The notes: a model not told the origin generated them from the sequence alone. DNA of 64,000 nucleotides from a virus (IMGVR_UViG_3300029288_000079:1-64000); one strand, 5' to 3'. Shown: positions 34,371-39,404, counted from the stretch's first letter. Translations and numbers: made by a program.

Positions 34371-34744
34371 AGTTTTTTAAAAAAATCCTCTTTATATAAT
34401 TCATTTCGCATAGCTATAAAATAATCATTAGTTAATTTAGGATAATCCTGATATATATGATACACCTTTTCACTTACAATACTTCCAAATACAGGGACAA
34501 ACTTGTTCTTAAGAAAATATTCAGAAAATAGAGTATCAATAAAACACTTATAATCTTGATTTGATAATCTAAGCTTCATCCTAAACCCTTTCATCCTGGA
34601 CAAATAAGCTCTCCAAGCCACTGGAGGAATTACCAATCCACCATTCCCAGCCCTCTTCAAACAATCTGAAAAATATAAAAGAAAATCCCTATTACTCCAT
34701 TGCTCTAAAGGCTTTACTTCAGATTCCTTTAAAAGTAATTTCAC
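34367..34744 (-). CDS. hypothetical protein
   Basis: 125-aa ORF with coupled start and stop. Confidence 0.65.
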   Translation of the reverse strand: MKLLLKESEVKPLEQWSNRDFLLYFSDCLKRAGNGGLVIPPVAWRAYLSRMKGFRMKLRLSNQDYKCFIDTLFSEYFLKNKFVPVFGSIVSEKVYHIYQDYPKLTNDYFIAMRNELYKEDFFKKL

Positions 34745-34938
34745 TTGGGCCTTTCTATGTTTGTCATTACAATTTTTTTACAATGATCCAACTTAATATC
34801 TCTAATGCCCCCCTTATCCAAATGAATTTCACCCTCAGCAGTAACTAATAAAGACAGCATATCGTTACCAATGAATTCTCTTACAATGCCATGTAGTACT
34901 GTGCCATTCTTTAAAGTAACTTTTGTTTGCATCAGCAT
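34741..34938 (-). CDS. small protein, possibly Sm/LSm-like fold
   Basis: KVTLKNGTVLHGIV beta pattern. Confidence 0.5.
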   Translation of the reverse strand: MLMQTKVTLKNGTVLHGIVREFIGNDMLSLLVTAEGEIHLDKGGIRDIKLDHCKKIVMTNIERPK

Positions 34939-35094
34939 ATTAAATTCCTTTTCATTATTCTATCTCCAAAATAAAAATAAAAACTGCAAATCGTTACCAT
35001 GTTTTATAGATTCAACCAACTCTGAGTATCCATTATCATTTTCCCTTCTATTTATTACTCAATTCAGCGTTCTATGTACTTACATGTTATGTCG

Positions 35095-35562
35095 TCATTG
35101 CTCATTTTTAGATACGCTTTGTGGCACTTCTTTTTCCGCTAAGAATTTTTGGATTATCTCTTCAACCTTTTCACCTACTGGATCACTCGTGTACCAACGA
35201 ATAAGTTTCCCAATCTTAGAGGCATAGTTCACCTCGTTTGTCGTGCTTTTCCCGATGTAATCATTTCGGTTCACAACAAACACTTCATCACAATCATCAA
35301 TCTTGCGGAAGTGTAATTCATCCATCGCGGTTGCAACGCTTTCGTGTTCGGCGATATGGTCAGGGATTCCCCTTGCATACCATATCGGCAATAAATGAAG
35401 TCCATTTGTTATTTTGTGTTCATCGCGCTCTATGAACCATGCACAAACAGCCATCACATCCACAAATCTTGAAGAACCACACATTACAACTCGTTTTGGT
35501 TTTTCCATATTTTCCTCAGTGCCACAAAGCGTTAAAAGTAGATGCAATGCGAACATAACCAT
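35095..35562 (-). CDS. cassette-borne nucleoside deoxyribosyltransferase-like / DUF4406-like protein
   Basis: MCGSSRF, HFRKIDDCDEVFVVN, YIGKST-NEVNYA. Confidence 0.6.
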   Translation of the reverse strand: MVMFALHLLLTLCGTEENMEKPKRVVMCGSSRFVDVMAVCAWFIERDEHKITNGLHLLPIWYARGIPDHIAEHESVATAMDELHFRKIDDCDEVFVVNRNDYIGKSTTNEVNYASKIGKLIRWYTSDPVGEKVEEIIQKFLAEKEVPQSVSKNEQ

Positions 35563-35952
35563 GTGGCCAAGCTGACCGAATCAGCCAAATGCAAAATTCA
35601 TTGAGTTAAACGCCCTTCAAAATCAGTCTGCAAATGTCTTGTACTAATTCCTCTTCTGCCATTCTCAATTCTTTTATTTTTCTTTTATCCATTCTTGTTA
35701 ATGCCCTTAAGGCAGAGTGAAGCAATTCATGTATTAAAAAGTCCTTCGGTTCTTTTGTCTTTGTTCCCCATCCATAAATTATTGATCGTTTATTCCTCGG
35801 ATGAATAGAACATTGCGCTCCATACTTACTTGCACATTGGTATGTTATTTTCCAGTCTTGTAATATTCTCAGTTGGCTCTTTAGGGCGTTTAACTTTTTC
35901 TTACTCATTTTGAACGTTTCTCCTTCGGCAGTTTAGCAACCATCCGTTACGC
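35553..35952 (+). repeat. attC-like site 1 (400 bp, whole ORF nested in the loop)
   Basis: ACATAAC...GCCAAGCTGACCGAA paired with TTCGGCAGTTTAGC...GTTACGC. Confidence 0.65.
35606..35908 (-). CDS. HExxH zinc-metalloprotease-like protein nested in the attC loop
   Basis: LIHELLH and EEELV motifs. Confidence 0.65.
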   Translation of the reverse strand: MSKKKLNALKSQLRILQDWKITYQCASKYGAQCSIHPRNKRSIIYGWGTKTKEPKDFLIHELLHSALRALTRMDKRKIKELRMAEEELVQDICRLILKGV

Positions 35953-36113
35953 GGTCGCGGTAAAGCGTGCAATTGCTTCAATTTTTTTACACACTTTCTT
36001 TTCTCAACTGTCCAGAATTTTATACAACTGTTAGCTAAGGCAATCTCTCTCCGTGCGGTTTTGATAGTTTTTTTTCTCTTTTCTATCTTATTCATCTTAA
36101 ATTCCTTTCGCAA
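35901..36113 (-). CDS. small basic cassette protein
   Basis: C-terminus RNGWLLNCRR is encoded by the attC right arm. Confidence 0.55.
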   Translation of the reverse strand: MRKEFKMNKIEKRKKTIKTARREIALANSCIKFWTVEKRKCVKKLKQLHALPRPRNGWLLNCRRRNVQNE

Positions 36114-36203
36114 TTACATGCTCACTAAAATGTTAATTGATTTATTTGTAAACATTTTCCTGCTTAACGAAAAAGTTCTCGTTTTGTCCATTGTCATAAT
36201 TTC

Positions 36204-36521
36204 CTATAAACTATTTTTATCTTCATCCATTAATGTGCCGGTAGAATCAATACGCTGGATAGGTATTATTGTGCCGAATATTTTGCTAATTTCTTCTTTG
36301 GATGAATAATAGTAATCACTTATTGCCATATTCCCGAATAGACTATTATATACCCAGCGATATTTCATTACTTTCTTTTTAGGCATAGTAAACGTCTCTT
36401 CTTTTTGACCGACGAATTGCCATAAGGAAGGGCCTCCTTCTACATGCGCTCTATCATCTTCTGAATTAGGTGTTACATAATGGTAAAGCCCATTTCTATG
36501 TAAATATGCATTTACTAACAT
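36204..36521 (-). CDS. hypothetical protein
   Basis: 105-aa ORF with AAGGAG RBS. Confidence 0.6.
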   Translation of the reverse strand: MLVNAYLHRNGLYHYVTPNSEDDRAHVEGGPSLWQFVGQKEETFTMPKKKVMKYRWVYNSLFGNMAISDYYYSSKEEISKIFGTIIPIQRIDSTGTLMDEDKNSL

Positions 36522-36772
36522 GGTATTTCTCCTTTAATTGGTTCATTAATTCTTGCCAAAAGCCATAGCAATCCACTAATTATCAACATTGCTCCACAAC
36601 TCGACCAATGATCTATTTTCATTTCTACACTTATGTTGCCGAAAGACCATATCAGCGTTTCTATGGCTACGGATACACCCATAAATATCATTCCATATAA
36701 GAAAGAAATTATTCTGTGTTCGTTTAGTTCCATAATGTTCTCTGTTCGCAAAAAATATAACCAAAGTTTCAA
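36515..36772 (-). CDS. small membrane protein
   Basis: Two hydrophobic helices. Confidence 0.6.
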   Translation of the reverse strand: MKLWLYFLRTENIMELNEHRIISFLYGMIFMGVSVAIETLIWSFGNISVEMKIDHWSSCGAMLIISGLLWLLARINEPIKGEIPC

Positions 36773-36839
36773 GTTGACCGAATCAACTTGCGTTTTTTAT
36801 TCTAACCTTTCAGCACGGCAGCTTAACCATCCGTTAGAC
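36755..36839 (+). repeat. attC-like site 2 (85 bp, canonical size)
   Basis: ATATAAC-CAAAGTTTCAAGTTGACCG paired with CGGCAGCTTAACCATCC-GTTAGAC. Confidence 0.8.
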
Positions 36840-36847
36840 ATATGTGC

Positions 36848-37195
36848 TCACAGTCCCGCTATAACGCATTCGTCACACACCCGCGTTTTGCCTGTATCAC
36901 TTCTGTCTTGTTGATTTACTACATATCCATAACTCGATCCACAGACATCACAAGTATGTGCCGGACAAAACGCTATGTGCGGTTGTCCTAATTCGTATTC
37001 CACTCCACAGTCAGGACACTTCGTTAATCGCGCACTGCCTAACACGTTGCTCAAGCTGACTGGCGTCAGCTCGTTTTTGTTAAGTATTTTTTCTATTAGG
37101 TCGGCAGCGTCGTAATATCCATTTCGGTTTGCTAAATCCATTGTGCTTCGTAATTGTTCGGTTAAACTTCTTTGGTCATTCATGTCTTGTCGCAC
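36848..37195 (-). CDS. Cys-rich zinc-finger cassette protein translated through an attC arm
   Basis: CPDC, CDVC, CDEC; segment PVSLSNVLG is encoded by the attC 3 left arm. Confidence 0.65.
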   Translation of the reverse strand: MRQDMNDQRSLTEQLRSTMDLANRNGYYDAADLIEKILNKNELTPVSLSNVLGSARLTKCPDCGVEYELGQPHIAFCPAHTCDVCGSSYGYVVNQQDRSDTGKTRVCDECVIAGL

Positions 37196-37242
37196 TTTAT
37201 TTCCTTTCTGTTTACGCCAGCAGCTTCGCTTAATCGTTGGGT
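37037..37242 (+). repeat. attC-like site 3 (206 bp)
   Basis: GCCTAACACGTTGCTCAAGCTGACTGGCGT paired with ACGCCAGCAGCTTCGCTTAATCGTTGGGT. Confidence 0.8.
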
Positions 37243-37250
37243 GGACGCGA

Positions 37251-37433
37251 TCAATAATCTTCTTTTATGCGTTCATATCGTTCATCCAGTTCCAGAAGGA
37301 CTATAAGTTTATCAATTATTTCTTTCCTTCCAGTTCGTTTACCATTTTCAAACATTGAAAGTTCTCGTTTTGTCCATTGTTTTACTTTTATAGGCTTTAA
37401 TTTTCCCATCTTTTCCTCCAACCAGCAACTCAA
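37251..37433 (-). CDS. small cassette protein (probable start MGKLKP)
   Basis: GGAGG RBS is supplied by the attC R'' box. Confidence 0.55.
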   Translation of the reverse strand: MSCWLEEKMGKLKPIKVKQWTKRELSMFENGKRTGRKEIIDKLIVLLELDERYERIKEDY

Positions 37434-37545
37434 GCTGACGTGATGAGCGTTTTACGTTCTTCCGTTTCAGTTGTAATTCATTATCATATCGGTATTCATT
37501 CATGCTTCAAGTCTTTTCCATGTGCAGTTTATGTTGCCGTTAGGC
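37416..37545 (+). repeat. attC-like site 4 (130 bp)
   Basis: CTCCAACCAGCAACTCAAGCTGACGTG paired with TGTGCAGTTTATGTTGCCGTTAGGC. Confidence 0.75.
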
Positions 37546-37761
37546 TGGTGGCACTTCTCTGTACAAGCTCGCAATCAATAACCTATCCTCGTGTTTCGGG
37601 TTTTCTTTTTCGTCATTAACCACTGCAAACCAAGTGCCTGCAAATTTTTCCAGTCGCACAAATTTAACAGGGCAAGTACCATACCATAGCACTGTACCTT
37701 TTTTCATAAATCTTGCGTCCTTAAATTTCATCGCTGTTCTCCTTTTTATAAAATGTGCCAC
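37540..37761 (-). CDS. small cassette protein (probable start MKFKDA)
   Basis: AAGGAG RBS; TAA stop lies within the attC R' box. Confidence 0.6.
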   Translation of the reverse strand: MAHFIKRRTAMKFKDARFMKKGTVLWYGTCPVKFVRLEKFAGTWFAVVNDEKENPKHEDRLLIASLYREVPPA

Positions 37762-37762
37762 C

Positions 37763-37875
37763 GCCTAATACGGCTTCAACTTTGACAGAATTAGCTTTGG
37801 TACGTTTGTCCATATCTTTTGATTTTTTCATTGATTCGCTCCCCTCCTGTTAGTAGTTTGCATATTGTATCGGCT
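37763..37875 (+). repeat. degenerate attC-like site 5
   Basis: GCCTAATACGGCTTCAACTTTGACAG paired with CTGTTAGTAGTT; R' eroded. Confidence 0.5.
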
Positions 37876-37880
37876 TATCA

Positions 37881-39404
37881 TCATCCTAGTTCCTTTGCTA
37901 ATTCTTCTAATGTGCATTTGCTTACGTCACGTTCTATTAACTTAAACTCAGGCTCCGACTTATAAATCTCCAATCTCCTTTTAGAATGCTTTGAAATATA
38001 CCTAACATCATGATAAAAGTCAATAATTCCACAAGATATTTTTCCTTCTGCAGCCGTGATAGATCTCATACGCTGTAATGTAGAAATACTACTCAATCCT
38101 CCGGCAGCATTTATAGTAAAATCTAAACTTAACAAATCTATACCCTCCTCAAACAATGTTGATATACAGCACATAATCTTTTTTTCACGTATTTTTTGAA
38201 TAACATCAACTCTTCTATCAGTCTTATCTTTTCCAGTCAAAACTACAGAATTTTTTATGGCCTTGTGCAAAACATTGGCATGATAAATTGTATCAGTTTG
38301 TATAATCACAGACTTATTATTATTATTCAAAGACATAACCAGTAAATTAATTAAACCTATAAAAAATTTATTTTCAACTACTGCTTGTTTATAAACTGTA
38401 GGATATGCTGCATCAATATCAAATTTTGGTAATTTATAAAAATATATTGTAGGACGTAATAAAAAACCCTCTCTAATAAGCTCTGAATATGTTACAGTAT
38501 GAATTATATCACCAATAGCTTCTTCTACCAACATATCTTCATCTTTATCTGCAAAAGGAGTAGCTGTTAGACCTATCTTTAATTCCGCATTAGTACATTT
38601 ACTCAGTACAAATTTACTCGTATTTGATAAACTATGATGAGCTTCGTCATAAAACACTAATTTAGCTTTTTTAAGTAATATTTGAATTAATATTTTTTGT
38701 TTCTTTTCTATTGAAAGCTCTTTATCTAGATCTTTTTCTTTTATTTCCTTACTATAAGCCGAAAAAGCACTTTGAACAGTAACTATAGTTATATCCTGTA
38801 TATCTACTTTACCATCCCCTACAATGCCTACAGTTATATCAGGAAGAAACTGATGAACTCTATCCAAAGTCTGATAAGCAAGATCTAAACTTCTACAGAA
38901 AAATACCACAGGAAATTTACGTTCCGAGTCCACTATCGCAATAAACATCAAAGTTTTACCTGACCTCATAGGTGCTTTTAAAATTCCAAAACGTTTTTCT
39001 ACACAACTTTGAGCTGCCAATAATTGATATGGTCTCAATTCATAAGTATTAGATTTTTGTACAAACTGCTCGGAACGAGGTTTATCAATAACATTAACCT
39101 CACAGCCATGTTTCTGCAATATATTAATAACTCTATTTAAAAGACCTACACGAAATGTTTTTGTTTTGGCATGATAGAGATGGTACTGACCATCCCATTG
39201 ATGATTTTGAAATTTTGGTGAGAAAAAGTAATTTTCAGCGTAAAAAGAAAGTTCATTATATATTATTGCTTCTAATTCTGTAGGAAGTTCTGTAAGAAAC
39301 CTGCACCACACAGAATAGAATTGTATATCTACTATAATATTAAACTGTTGATCTATGTCTTCAGAAATCTCTTCATGAAATATATCAACATCTATTTTTA
39401 CCAT
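37881..39404 (-). CDS. superfamily 2 DNA helicase (UvsW-like)
   Basis: LRPYQ, APMRSGKT, DEAHH, GLTATP, EEGID. Confidence 0.9.
   Translation of the reverse strand: MVKIDVDIFHEEISEDIDQQFNIIVDIQFYSVWCRFLTELPTELEAIIYNELSFYAENYFFSPKFQNHQWDGQYHLYHAKTKTFRVGLLNRVINILQKHGCEVNVIDKPRSEQFVQKSNTYELRPYQLLAAQSCVEKRFGILKAPMRSGKTLMFIAIVDSERKFPVVFFCRSLDLAYQTLDRVHQFLPDITVGIVGDGKVDIQDITIVTVQSAFSAYSKEIKEKDLDKELSIEKKQKILIQILLKKAKLVFYDEAHHSLSNTSKFVLSKCTNAELKIGLTATPFADKDEDMLVEEAIGDIIHTVTYSELIREGFLLRPTIYFYKLPKFDIDAAYPTVYKQAVVENKFFIGLINLLVMSLNNNNKSVIIQTDTIYHANVLHKAIKNSVVLTGKDKTDRRVDVIQKIREKKIMCCISTLFEEGIDLLSLDFTINAAGGLSSISTLQRMRSITAAEGKISCGIIDFYHDVRYISKHSKRRLEIYKSEPEFKLIERDVSKCTLEELAKELG

Follow-up and report, generated by a model that had tools for sequence, protein, structure and literature searches.

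A probable integrase-less array of attC cassettes with reversed genes in a large T4-like phage

Integrons are a bacterial device for gene capture. Within an integron array, the sequence that follows an R′ GTT is part of the next cassette and is complementary to the flank of the R″ box of that cassette. To our knowledge, attC sites are known from few phages, where they have been viewed solely as a way for bacterial cassettes to move. The present study concerns a set of attC-type structures in a 64,000-nt stretch of viral DNA (IMGVR_UViG_3300029288_000079:1-64000, hereafter the window), which is the first part of an IMG/VR virus genome of 181,733 bp, complete by CheckV. These structures are located between a UvsW-like helicase gene and a small gene at 34741-34938, and they probably represent an attC cluster that has no integron integrase (CALIN) in a T4-like phage, with cassettes joined at G|TT by an IntI acting in trans and with accessory phage genes as cargo. 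Two published results bear on such an arrangement: IntI1 recombined five of six attCs taken from lytic phages (Qi et al. 2023, PMC9892861), and IntI also places cassettes at GWT positions that are not att sites (Loot et al., bioRxiv 10.1101/2022.09.11.507474).

The window has a GC content of ~33% and carries its genes on the − strand, and a 7-kb megablast against GenBank phages returned no match. The gene neighboring the array (37881-39404, − strand) encodes a UvsW-like helicase (ResIII 7e-18; phrog_16 6e-62), and the carrier is therefore assigned to the large T4-like phages. Seven class 1 integrons were fetched as an attC reference, after the aadA1 attC had been checked against data (58/58 bases matched in plasmid R100; present in 2,515 plasmid records). 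The plasmid attCs follow the pattern TAAC-N8-C[AG]A[AG]NNNGAC ... GTTRRRY, and each has its cassette gene upstream, on the strand of the attC. The phage sites keep an identical register in the form YAAC-N8-CAAGYTGAC ... GCAGYTT-N8 to N11-GTT, with arms 39 to 351 nt apart. The left arm CAAGYTGAC has four exact matches in the 181,733-bp genome, all on the + strand, all in the array and each followed by GCAGYTT. By pattern scan and BLAST, sites of the same family were also reached in G001 and G002 (nine and four sites, respectively), two ~40-kb phages that are related to each other, have terminal repeats and are unrelated to the 182-kb phage.

Two covariance models were applied, one trained solely on eight real class 1 integron attCs (the class 1 model) and one built on the phage attC family (the family model). 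The five palindromes claimed by the first-pass annotation, here sites A to E, are all present on the + strand, within 1 nt of their predicted places. Site A (35552-35952, 401 nt) contains repeat families D2, D4 and D15, has arms close to those of site B, and houses a gene, g2, in its loop. Site B (36754-36839, 86 nt) is 87-88% identical to a site of G001 and G002 and scores 18.4 bits with the class 1 model (E 0.015) and 63.7 bits with the family model. Site C (37036-37242, 207 nt) matches the class 1 model over its full length (17.3 bits, E 0.031) and the family model over its left part (26.6 bits). Site D (37415-37545, 131 nt), whose length is typical of the phage family, aligns over its full length with the G001 and G002 sites and scores 96.9 bits with the family model. 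Site E (37755-37875) is eroded: it abuts the stop codon of the helicase gene, retains a loop recognized by the family model (37783-37862, 22.8 bits) and has degenerate arms, GTAGTTT and GTATC. In sites B and C the L″ box also lies in a local hairpin with a T run behind it (36770-36800 and 37054-37081), and these hairpins resemble intrinsic terminators on the gene-free + strand.

When both strands of the window were searched (128 kb of searched strand, E ≤ 10), the class 1 model gave no match besides sites B and C; the two lie on the + strand, and their ends are exactly as predicted. The ~85-bp site, for which the first-pass annotation had named a lack of covariance-model support as a refuting condition, is among these matches, at a modest score. 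On other viral contigs, this model scored dozens of previously unseen attCs at 30-50 bits and therefore generalizes. An alignment of 11 full-length family sites provides the structural evidence. AAC and GTT are invariant in 11/11 of these sites, with R″ reading TAAC or CAAC and R′ reading GTTA or GTTG in the window. RNAalifold, unprompted, recovered an R stem, a spacer stem and an L stem, and left C17 and A24 unpaired and invariant; these are the unpaired C and A of the left arm that had been noticed in the window sites. Paired cells amount to 93.6%, where shuffles give 78.7% and slid controls 25-36%, and compensatory changes occupy 25 cells versus 8.4 in shuffles, distributed over 8 of 17 pairs; the observed values were reached by none of 500 shuffles. 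Since thermodynamic folding of the phage sites is not significant, the structural case rests on this covariation. With R″/R′ and L″/L′ boxes and two unpaired left-arm bases, the sites are shown to be structurally true attCs.

Two further matches lie elsewhere in the phage genome. The family model identified a solo, eroded family site in the same orientation (L019:18481-18604, genome 142081-142204; 35.5 bits, E 3e-6), in whose loop a 94-aa open reading frame (ORF; 18264-18548 of L019, − strand) begins. It looks like a domesticated single cassette, comparable to a single attC site lacking an integrase (SALIN). The class 1 model gave a weak match (L017:18264-18358, genome ~102064-102158; 15.5 bits, E 0.34) in an ORF-free stretch of 440 nt, with complementary ends AGCTTAAC and GTTAAAGCT; it may be due to chance.

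The ends of the cassettes provide a further signature. The first-pass annotation had claimed that the sequence after an R′ GTT is complementary to the next R″ and its flank, and this holds for cassettes 1, 4 and 5. The founding R′ junction at 35086-35101 (+ strand, G|TTATGTCGTCATTGC), where cassette 1 starts, is complementary at 13/16 positions to the R″ flank of site A (35544-35559). In cassette 4, GTTGGGTGGA pairs with TCCTCCAAC, and in cassette 5 the R″ flank of site E pairs with the R′ remainder of site D (15/16, one indel). The same arrangement across cassettes recurs in G001, where six consecutive cassettes have 13-14/14 complementary bases. Over the three phages, cassette-spanning pairs average 8.0/12, and 9 of 15 pairs reach at least 9. 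The two ends of one and the same site average 5.5/12, and non-partner pairs 5.6 ± 1.35, with 2.9% reaching 9.

Contigs from the same communities indicate that attC partners change at this point. In contigs from four runs and three studies, at least four more, unrelated sequences follow the B-type attC immediately past CCGTTA, bringing the partners of this attC to at least six when G001/G002 and the window are counted; the contigs give no junction frequencies. Matches to the site D piece end after the G of GTT. Judged from these assembled sequences, partner divergence past GTTA is the pattern expected of site-specific exchange. A 79-nt non-coding piece at 35011-35089, on the left border of the array, is multi-copy in the community, with other flanks on both sides and divergence right past GTTA, and its depth is 112 versus 16 for its surroundings in run X3. 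This piece may be the entry site of the array. It occupies the place that attI has in a normal integron. Transposition of the IS200/IS605 hairpin type was considered and set aside, as the junctions have GTT alone in common and show no fixed target of 4-5 nt. Two apparent joints, 35089>37030 and 35561>37039, were left out because their sides measure just 18-31 nt and the joints probably come from other members of the repeat family.

Comparison with related phages shows that the array is a 2.9-kb insert that immediately follows the UvsW-like helicase gene. In L001, a relative at 78% identity, the interval from the helicase gene to its neighbor holds only one ORF, of 62 aa, and in closer relatives (93-95% identity; landfill and groundwater runs) position 34958 is joined to 37891 with about six letters between them. 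These empty-site contigs are deeper than the array form in the same runs (108 and 45 versus ~3). The insert is also foreign by composition. The first-pass annotation had remarked on a richness in CG dinucleotides, and the CpG observed/expected ratio is indeed 1.13 in the array versus 0.41 and 0.57 in its flanks and 0.45 genome-wide; 3-kb windows reach 0.85 or more solely over the array. Cassette bodies without their arms give 1.13 as well, and GC content rises to 38% from 33.5% genome-wide. Corresponding CpG ratios are 1.32 and 1.26 in the arrays of G001 and G002 (0.74 and 0.73 in the rest of these genomes) and 0.95-1.14 in bacterial arrays. The 78%-identical relative is CpG-depleted too (0.49), like the 182-kb phage.

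So sharp a difference in composition from the rest of the genome is what an assembly artefact, with bacterial integron DNA misjoined to a phage contig, would produce. This explanation is practically dismissed by the recurrence of the junctions: they are found in independent contigs from two JGI samples, including one (L007) that covers both borders with 99.99% identity over 6.9 kb, and again in contigs from runs of several studies. Furthermore, the cassette genes and the phage genes are collinear, and one of the former, g1, belongs to a phage gene family.

The direction of the genes sets the array apart. As the first-pass annotation had noted, all genes run antisense to cassette polarity: the longest ORF is antisense in 5/5 window cassettes, and the canonical cassette, whose ORF on the top strand points towards its own attC, is not what the window array contains. 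The fetched class 1 arrays show that canonical direction. Across phage arrays the longest ORF is antisense to attC in 13 of 16 cassettes, whereas in bacterial arrays with the same attC family it runs towards attC in 42 of 48 (Fisher p = 8e-7). The phage cassettes are thereby shown to be built backwards relative to the bacterial ones, so that, along the phage coding strand, the gene lies behind the attC. Genes g2, g6, g8 and g10 begin in an attC loop, 20-37 nt past L′, and g7, g5 and g1 begin 5-45 nt past R″. Several of the genes run on across the left arm. Genes arranged in this way would be read only through run-through transcription from phage promoters.

This layout also suits a different explanation, namely that the hairpins are kept chiefly as phage expression signals (ribosome-site and start-codon modules, RNA hairpins or antisense terminators) and are spread by phage recombination, with the likeness to attC a matter of ancestry. 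Ribosome sites and start codons do lie in the loops or at R″; the ~50-nt leader before g1 is 81% like a G001 leader that precedes a different gene; and terminator-like hairpins occur on the + strand at L″ of sites B and C, with 5 found versus 1.7 expected. Promoter-like sites, however, are not in excess (6 versus 10.1 in shuffles), and such an origin leaves unexplained both the cassette-spanning complementarity that switches partner at GTT and the partner divergence right past GTTA. It is accordingly regarded as very unlikely.

The attC family extends to bacteria, and this bears on the source of the integrase. The family left arm TAACCAGCGGNNCAAGCTGAC occurs in at least 119 stretches of species-representative genomes versus ~4 expected by chance, and among the matches listed nearly all are, by record title, metagenome-assembled genomes of Ignavibacteriota or Bacteroidota. 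In genomes of this group the family model finds long arrays (50-68 bits, sites of ~158 or 197 nt), and four of five array-bearing genomes encode an IntI at 427-453 bits, against a TIGR02249 cut-off of 265 bits. At the level of sequence, the window sites are shown to share their attC family with these chromosomal integrons. Since the clade holds both arrays and IntI, the attC family probably stems from it, and it is also the likely host of the phage. The phage itself has no tyrosine recombinase: the absence claimed for the window holds, and it extends to the whole 181.7-kb genome (no PF00589 or TIGR02249 match). No intI was found in that genome and no attI or Pc promoter beside the array; lacking an integrase, the array is therefore a CALIN and not an integron. 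We infer that the best integrase candidate is a host chromosomal IntI acting in trans.

The interpretation as an attC cassette array, first proposed from the sequence of the window, is thus backed by the class 1 model on sites B and C, by covariation, by cassette-spanning complementarity and by the same family in IntI-encoding bacteria. In the proposed mechanism, a first cassette would have inserted at a GTT site of the phage, leaving ACATG|TTA as the left junction, and further cassettes would have been added through strand exchange of the IntI type at G|TT, with the integrase supplied in trans, most likely from the host chromosome. Since its assembly, the array would have undergone partial decay and reshuffling by ordinary recombination.

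Several observations weigh against this interpretation. With respect to the sites, B and D fall inside the attC length range of ~55-141 nt, and A (401 nt) and C (207 nt) exceed it. In the 64-kb window the class 1 model did not find site A and scored site D weakly (6.2 bits); its scores for B and C (17-18 bits) are modest compared with 51-70 for the training sites. Site A was missed by the family model too, in both cases because of its size. When folded as single-stranded DNA, the attC hairpin is unfavored in sites B (z −1.9) and D (z −0.6), compared with z −4.6 for the aadA1 attC, and in site B the L″ box is sequestered by a competing local hairpin resembling a + strand terminator. End complementarity is absent from cassette 2 and weak in cassette 3. 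Cassette 2 (887 bp) holds three ORFs (g3, g4 and g5) and a fragment of a g7-like gene; it looks fused or decayed, and the fragment is a probable sign of such decay. With respect to rearrangement, a contig from the same sample (L008), which shares g1-g4 and site A at 97%, departs at ~36547, just upstream of g4, and in G001 and G002 the arms of one site are common to both, yet the genes inside its loop differ. The arrays are therefore reshaped by ordinary recombination as well. The expectation that relatives would vary exactly at G|TT is supported by the divergence past GTTA, next to which close relatives have an empty site, and fails in these two cases. With respect to host and integrase, a PanB search of the phage for its host gave no signal, the top matches being phage-like contigs binned under assorted candidate phyla, and no integrase or tyrosine recombinase was found in ten other phage records bearing related sites. 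Phage-borne integrases exist: IntI relatives 47-56% identical to the Ignavibacteriota ones are encoded in ~300 IMG/VR contigs (loci L207-L286), many of them 35-45 kb long, and two such contigs come from sample 3300014205, the source of L007. They were rejected as the source, as the attC family occurs in none of the best 80 of these ~300 contigs.

Much of this would fit a relic, assembled elsewhere by an integron integrase, captured once and now decaying, on which only homologous or illegitimate recombination acts, via attC arms or gene borders. The eroded site E, the fused cassette 2 (three ORFs, the g7-like fragment at 36172-36202 and no end complementarity), the oversized loops of A and C, the poor folding as single strands, the L008 breakpoint at ~36547, the G001/G002 difference within a loop and the solo eroded site at genome 142081-142204 all point in this direction. 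However, the CpG content of the array is wholly unameliorated (1.13 versus 0.45), which indicates a recent arrival; the partners of one attC type, at least six in number, diverge exactly past GTTA in the same samples; and no erosion is seen in sites B and D, which retain the two unpaired bases. The relic explanation is thus considered unlikely, though less so than maintenance as expression signals, and cassette joining by an IntI acting in trans is retained as the probable account.

The cargo is phage-like. Gene g1 (35095-35508, − strand, 137 aa) belongs to a widespread phage protein family, with 440 homologs at 57-73% identity in phage-like operons without attC. Its structural model (predicted local distance difference test score, pLDDT, 91) has a top Foldseek match of E 2e-3 and TM 0.5, and the predicted fold bears a weak resemblance to nucleoside 2′-deoxyribosyltransferase/DNPH1; a sequence search of the PDB with g1 gave no match. 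Gene g2 (35606-35908, −, 100 aa), within the loop of site A, has an HExxH motif, and the Atlas clusters closest to it are viral and carry hints of SprT-like and M78 proteins. Together these suggest a cargo of accessory phage genes, for example a 2′-deoxyribosyltransferase-like protein and a small HExxH protein. Searches of Pfam, PHROGs and NCBIfam assigned no significant family to any cassette ORF, and no homologs of g1-g10 turned up when these were compared by tblastn with every bacterial and phage array fetched.

The remaining genes, all on the − strand, are small. In cassette 2, g3 (35901-36095, 64 aa) crosses the R′-L′ arm of site A with its last 16 codons, and it is followed along the window by g4 (36204-36521, 105 aa) and the hydrophobic g5 (36515-36733, 72 aa). 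A 53-nt element at 36119-36171, before g3, is 98% identical to an element at the transcription-entry edge of the G001 and G002 arrays, where the copies sit immediately ahead of the first gene; it may act as a promoter or as some other signal. Gene g6 (36848-37183, 111 aa) encodes a Cys-rich zinc-ribbon protein; its start lies within the site C loop, and it runs through that site's L″ and R″. Gene g7 (37251-37409, 52 aa) has a GGAGG ribosome site overlapping the R″ of site D, and g8 (37348-37503), an alternative that overlaps it, begins within the site D loop. Positions 36172-36202 and 37358-37388 form a direct repeat of 31 nt (90%), the first copy being the g7-like gene fragment stranded in cassette 2. 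Gene g9 (37540-37731, 63 aa) and g10 (37721-37831, 36 aa), the latter starting in the loop of site E, complete the series.

At the left border, the leader (34959-35085) is non-coding and missing from the empty-site relatives. It was rejected as a partial duplication of the neighboring gene: a 24-nt repeat (34847-34870 / 34976-34999, 88%) is present, but the score of the local alignment does not stand out from shuffles (61 versus 52.7 ± 6.3). The unrelated DNA upstream of g4 in L008 (L008:1-310) was likewise rejected as a tRNA, as it has a T-arm-like motif but no ARAGORN gene.

If a host integrase does move these cassettes, lytic phages would swap accessory genes, possibly including counter-defence genes, singly through a host recombinase; attC families would be usable as a host-prediction marker for uncultured phages; and the sense bacterial and antisense phage pools on one attC family would offer a test case for cassette genesis. 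A broader and tentative proposal is that phages of Ignavibacteria and Bacteroidota keep a private pool of reversed cassettes, in which the attC would supply the ribosome site and start codon, and that these are traded between unrelated phages (the 182-kb phage and ~40-kb phages) in the course of infection, via the host's chromosomal IntI. In that event, the integron would be a gene-exchange device common to host and virus.

Among known systems, the promoter early stem-loop (PeSL) modules of T4-type phages, which Arbiol et al. are said to have described in 2010, reportedly consist of intergenic hairpin repeats with an early promoter that recombine by homology. The array resembles them in its repeated hairpins around small accessory ORFs, its place in a variable region of a T4-like genome and its swapping of unrelated genes. 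Unlike PeSL modules, the window sites have attC architecture and partner-switching ends, and a search for a PeSL-type sigma-70 early promoter gave 6 promoter-like sites versus 10.1 ± 2.8 in shuffles, none of them recurring from repeat to repeat.

Class 1 attCs (aadA1, aacA4, dfrA1, blaVIM-2, arr-3) share with the phage sites the order of the boxes, their spacing and the two unpaired R″-L″ bases. In comparison, the phage sites are AT-rich with longer loops, and their array is without attI, Pc promoter and intI. The entry of the first cassette at a bare G|WT, ACATG|TTA in this locus, would be accounted for by attG/SALIN insertion (Loot et al., bioRxiv 10.1101/2022.09.11.507474); that process was described in bacterial chromosomes, whereas the event inferred here has a phage as its target.

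The closest cellular counterparts are the sedentary chromosomal integrons of Ignavibacteriota and Bacteroidota (L084, L161, L137 and others), which present the same TAAC-CAGCGGNN-CAAGCTGAC ... GCAGCTT ... CCGTTA and have GC and CpG contents close to those of the phage array. Their sites are longer (~158 or 197 nt versus 86-131 nt in phages), they encode IntI, and their genes point towards attC (42/48), whereas the phages are without IntI and their genes point away (13/16).

The closest viral counterparts are the phage CALINs already published by Qi et al. (2023, PMC9892861), likewise integrase-less attC clusters in lytic-type phages with small cargo genes of unknown function. The reversed layout is absent from the literature searched, and the text of Qi et al. 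(2023, PMC9892861) is without mention of antisense genes. Compared with these CALINs, the window array has every cassette reversed, with several genes starting inside an attC loop, and its attC family is traced to Ignavibacteriota/Bacteroidota arrays and is common to unrelated phages. The present case adds a large T4-like carrier of lytic type, an attC family tied to bacterial integrons whose cassettes have the normal sense, and a CpG contrast together with empty-site relatives and partner switching at GTTA in the community. Its cassettes carry phage-type genes in a reversed build that would be readable only with phage transcription.

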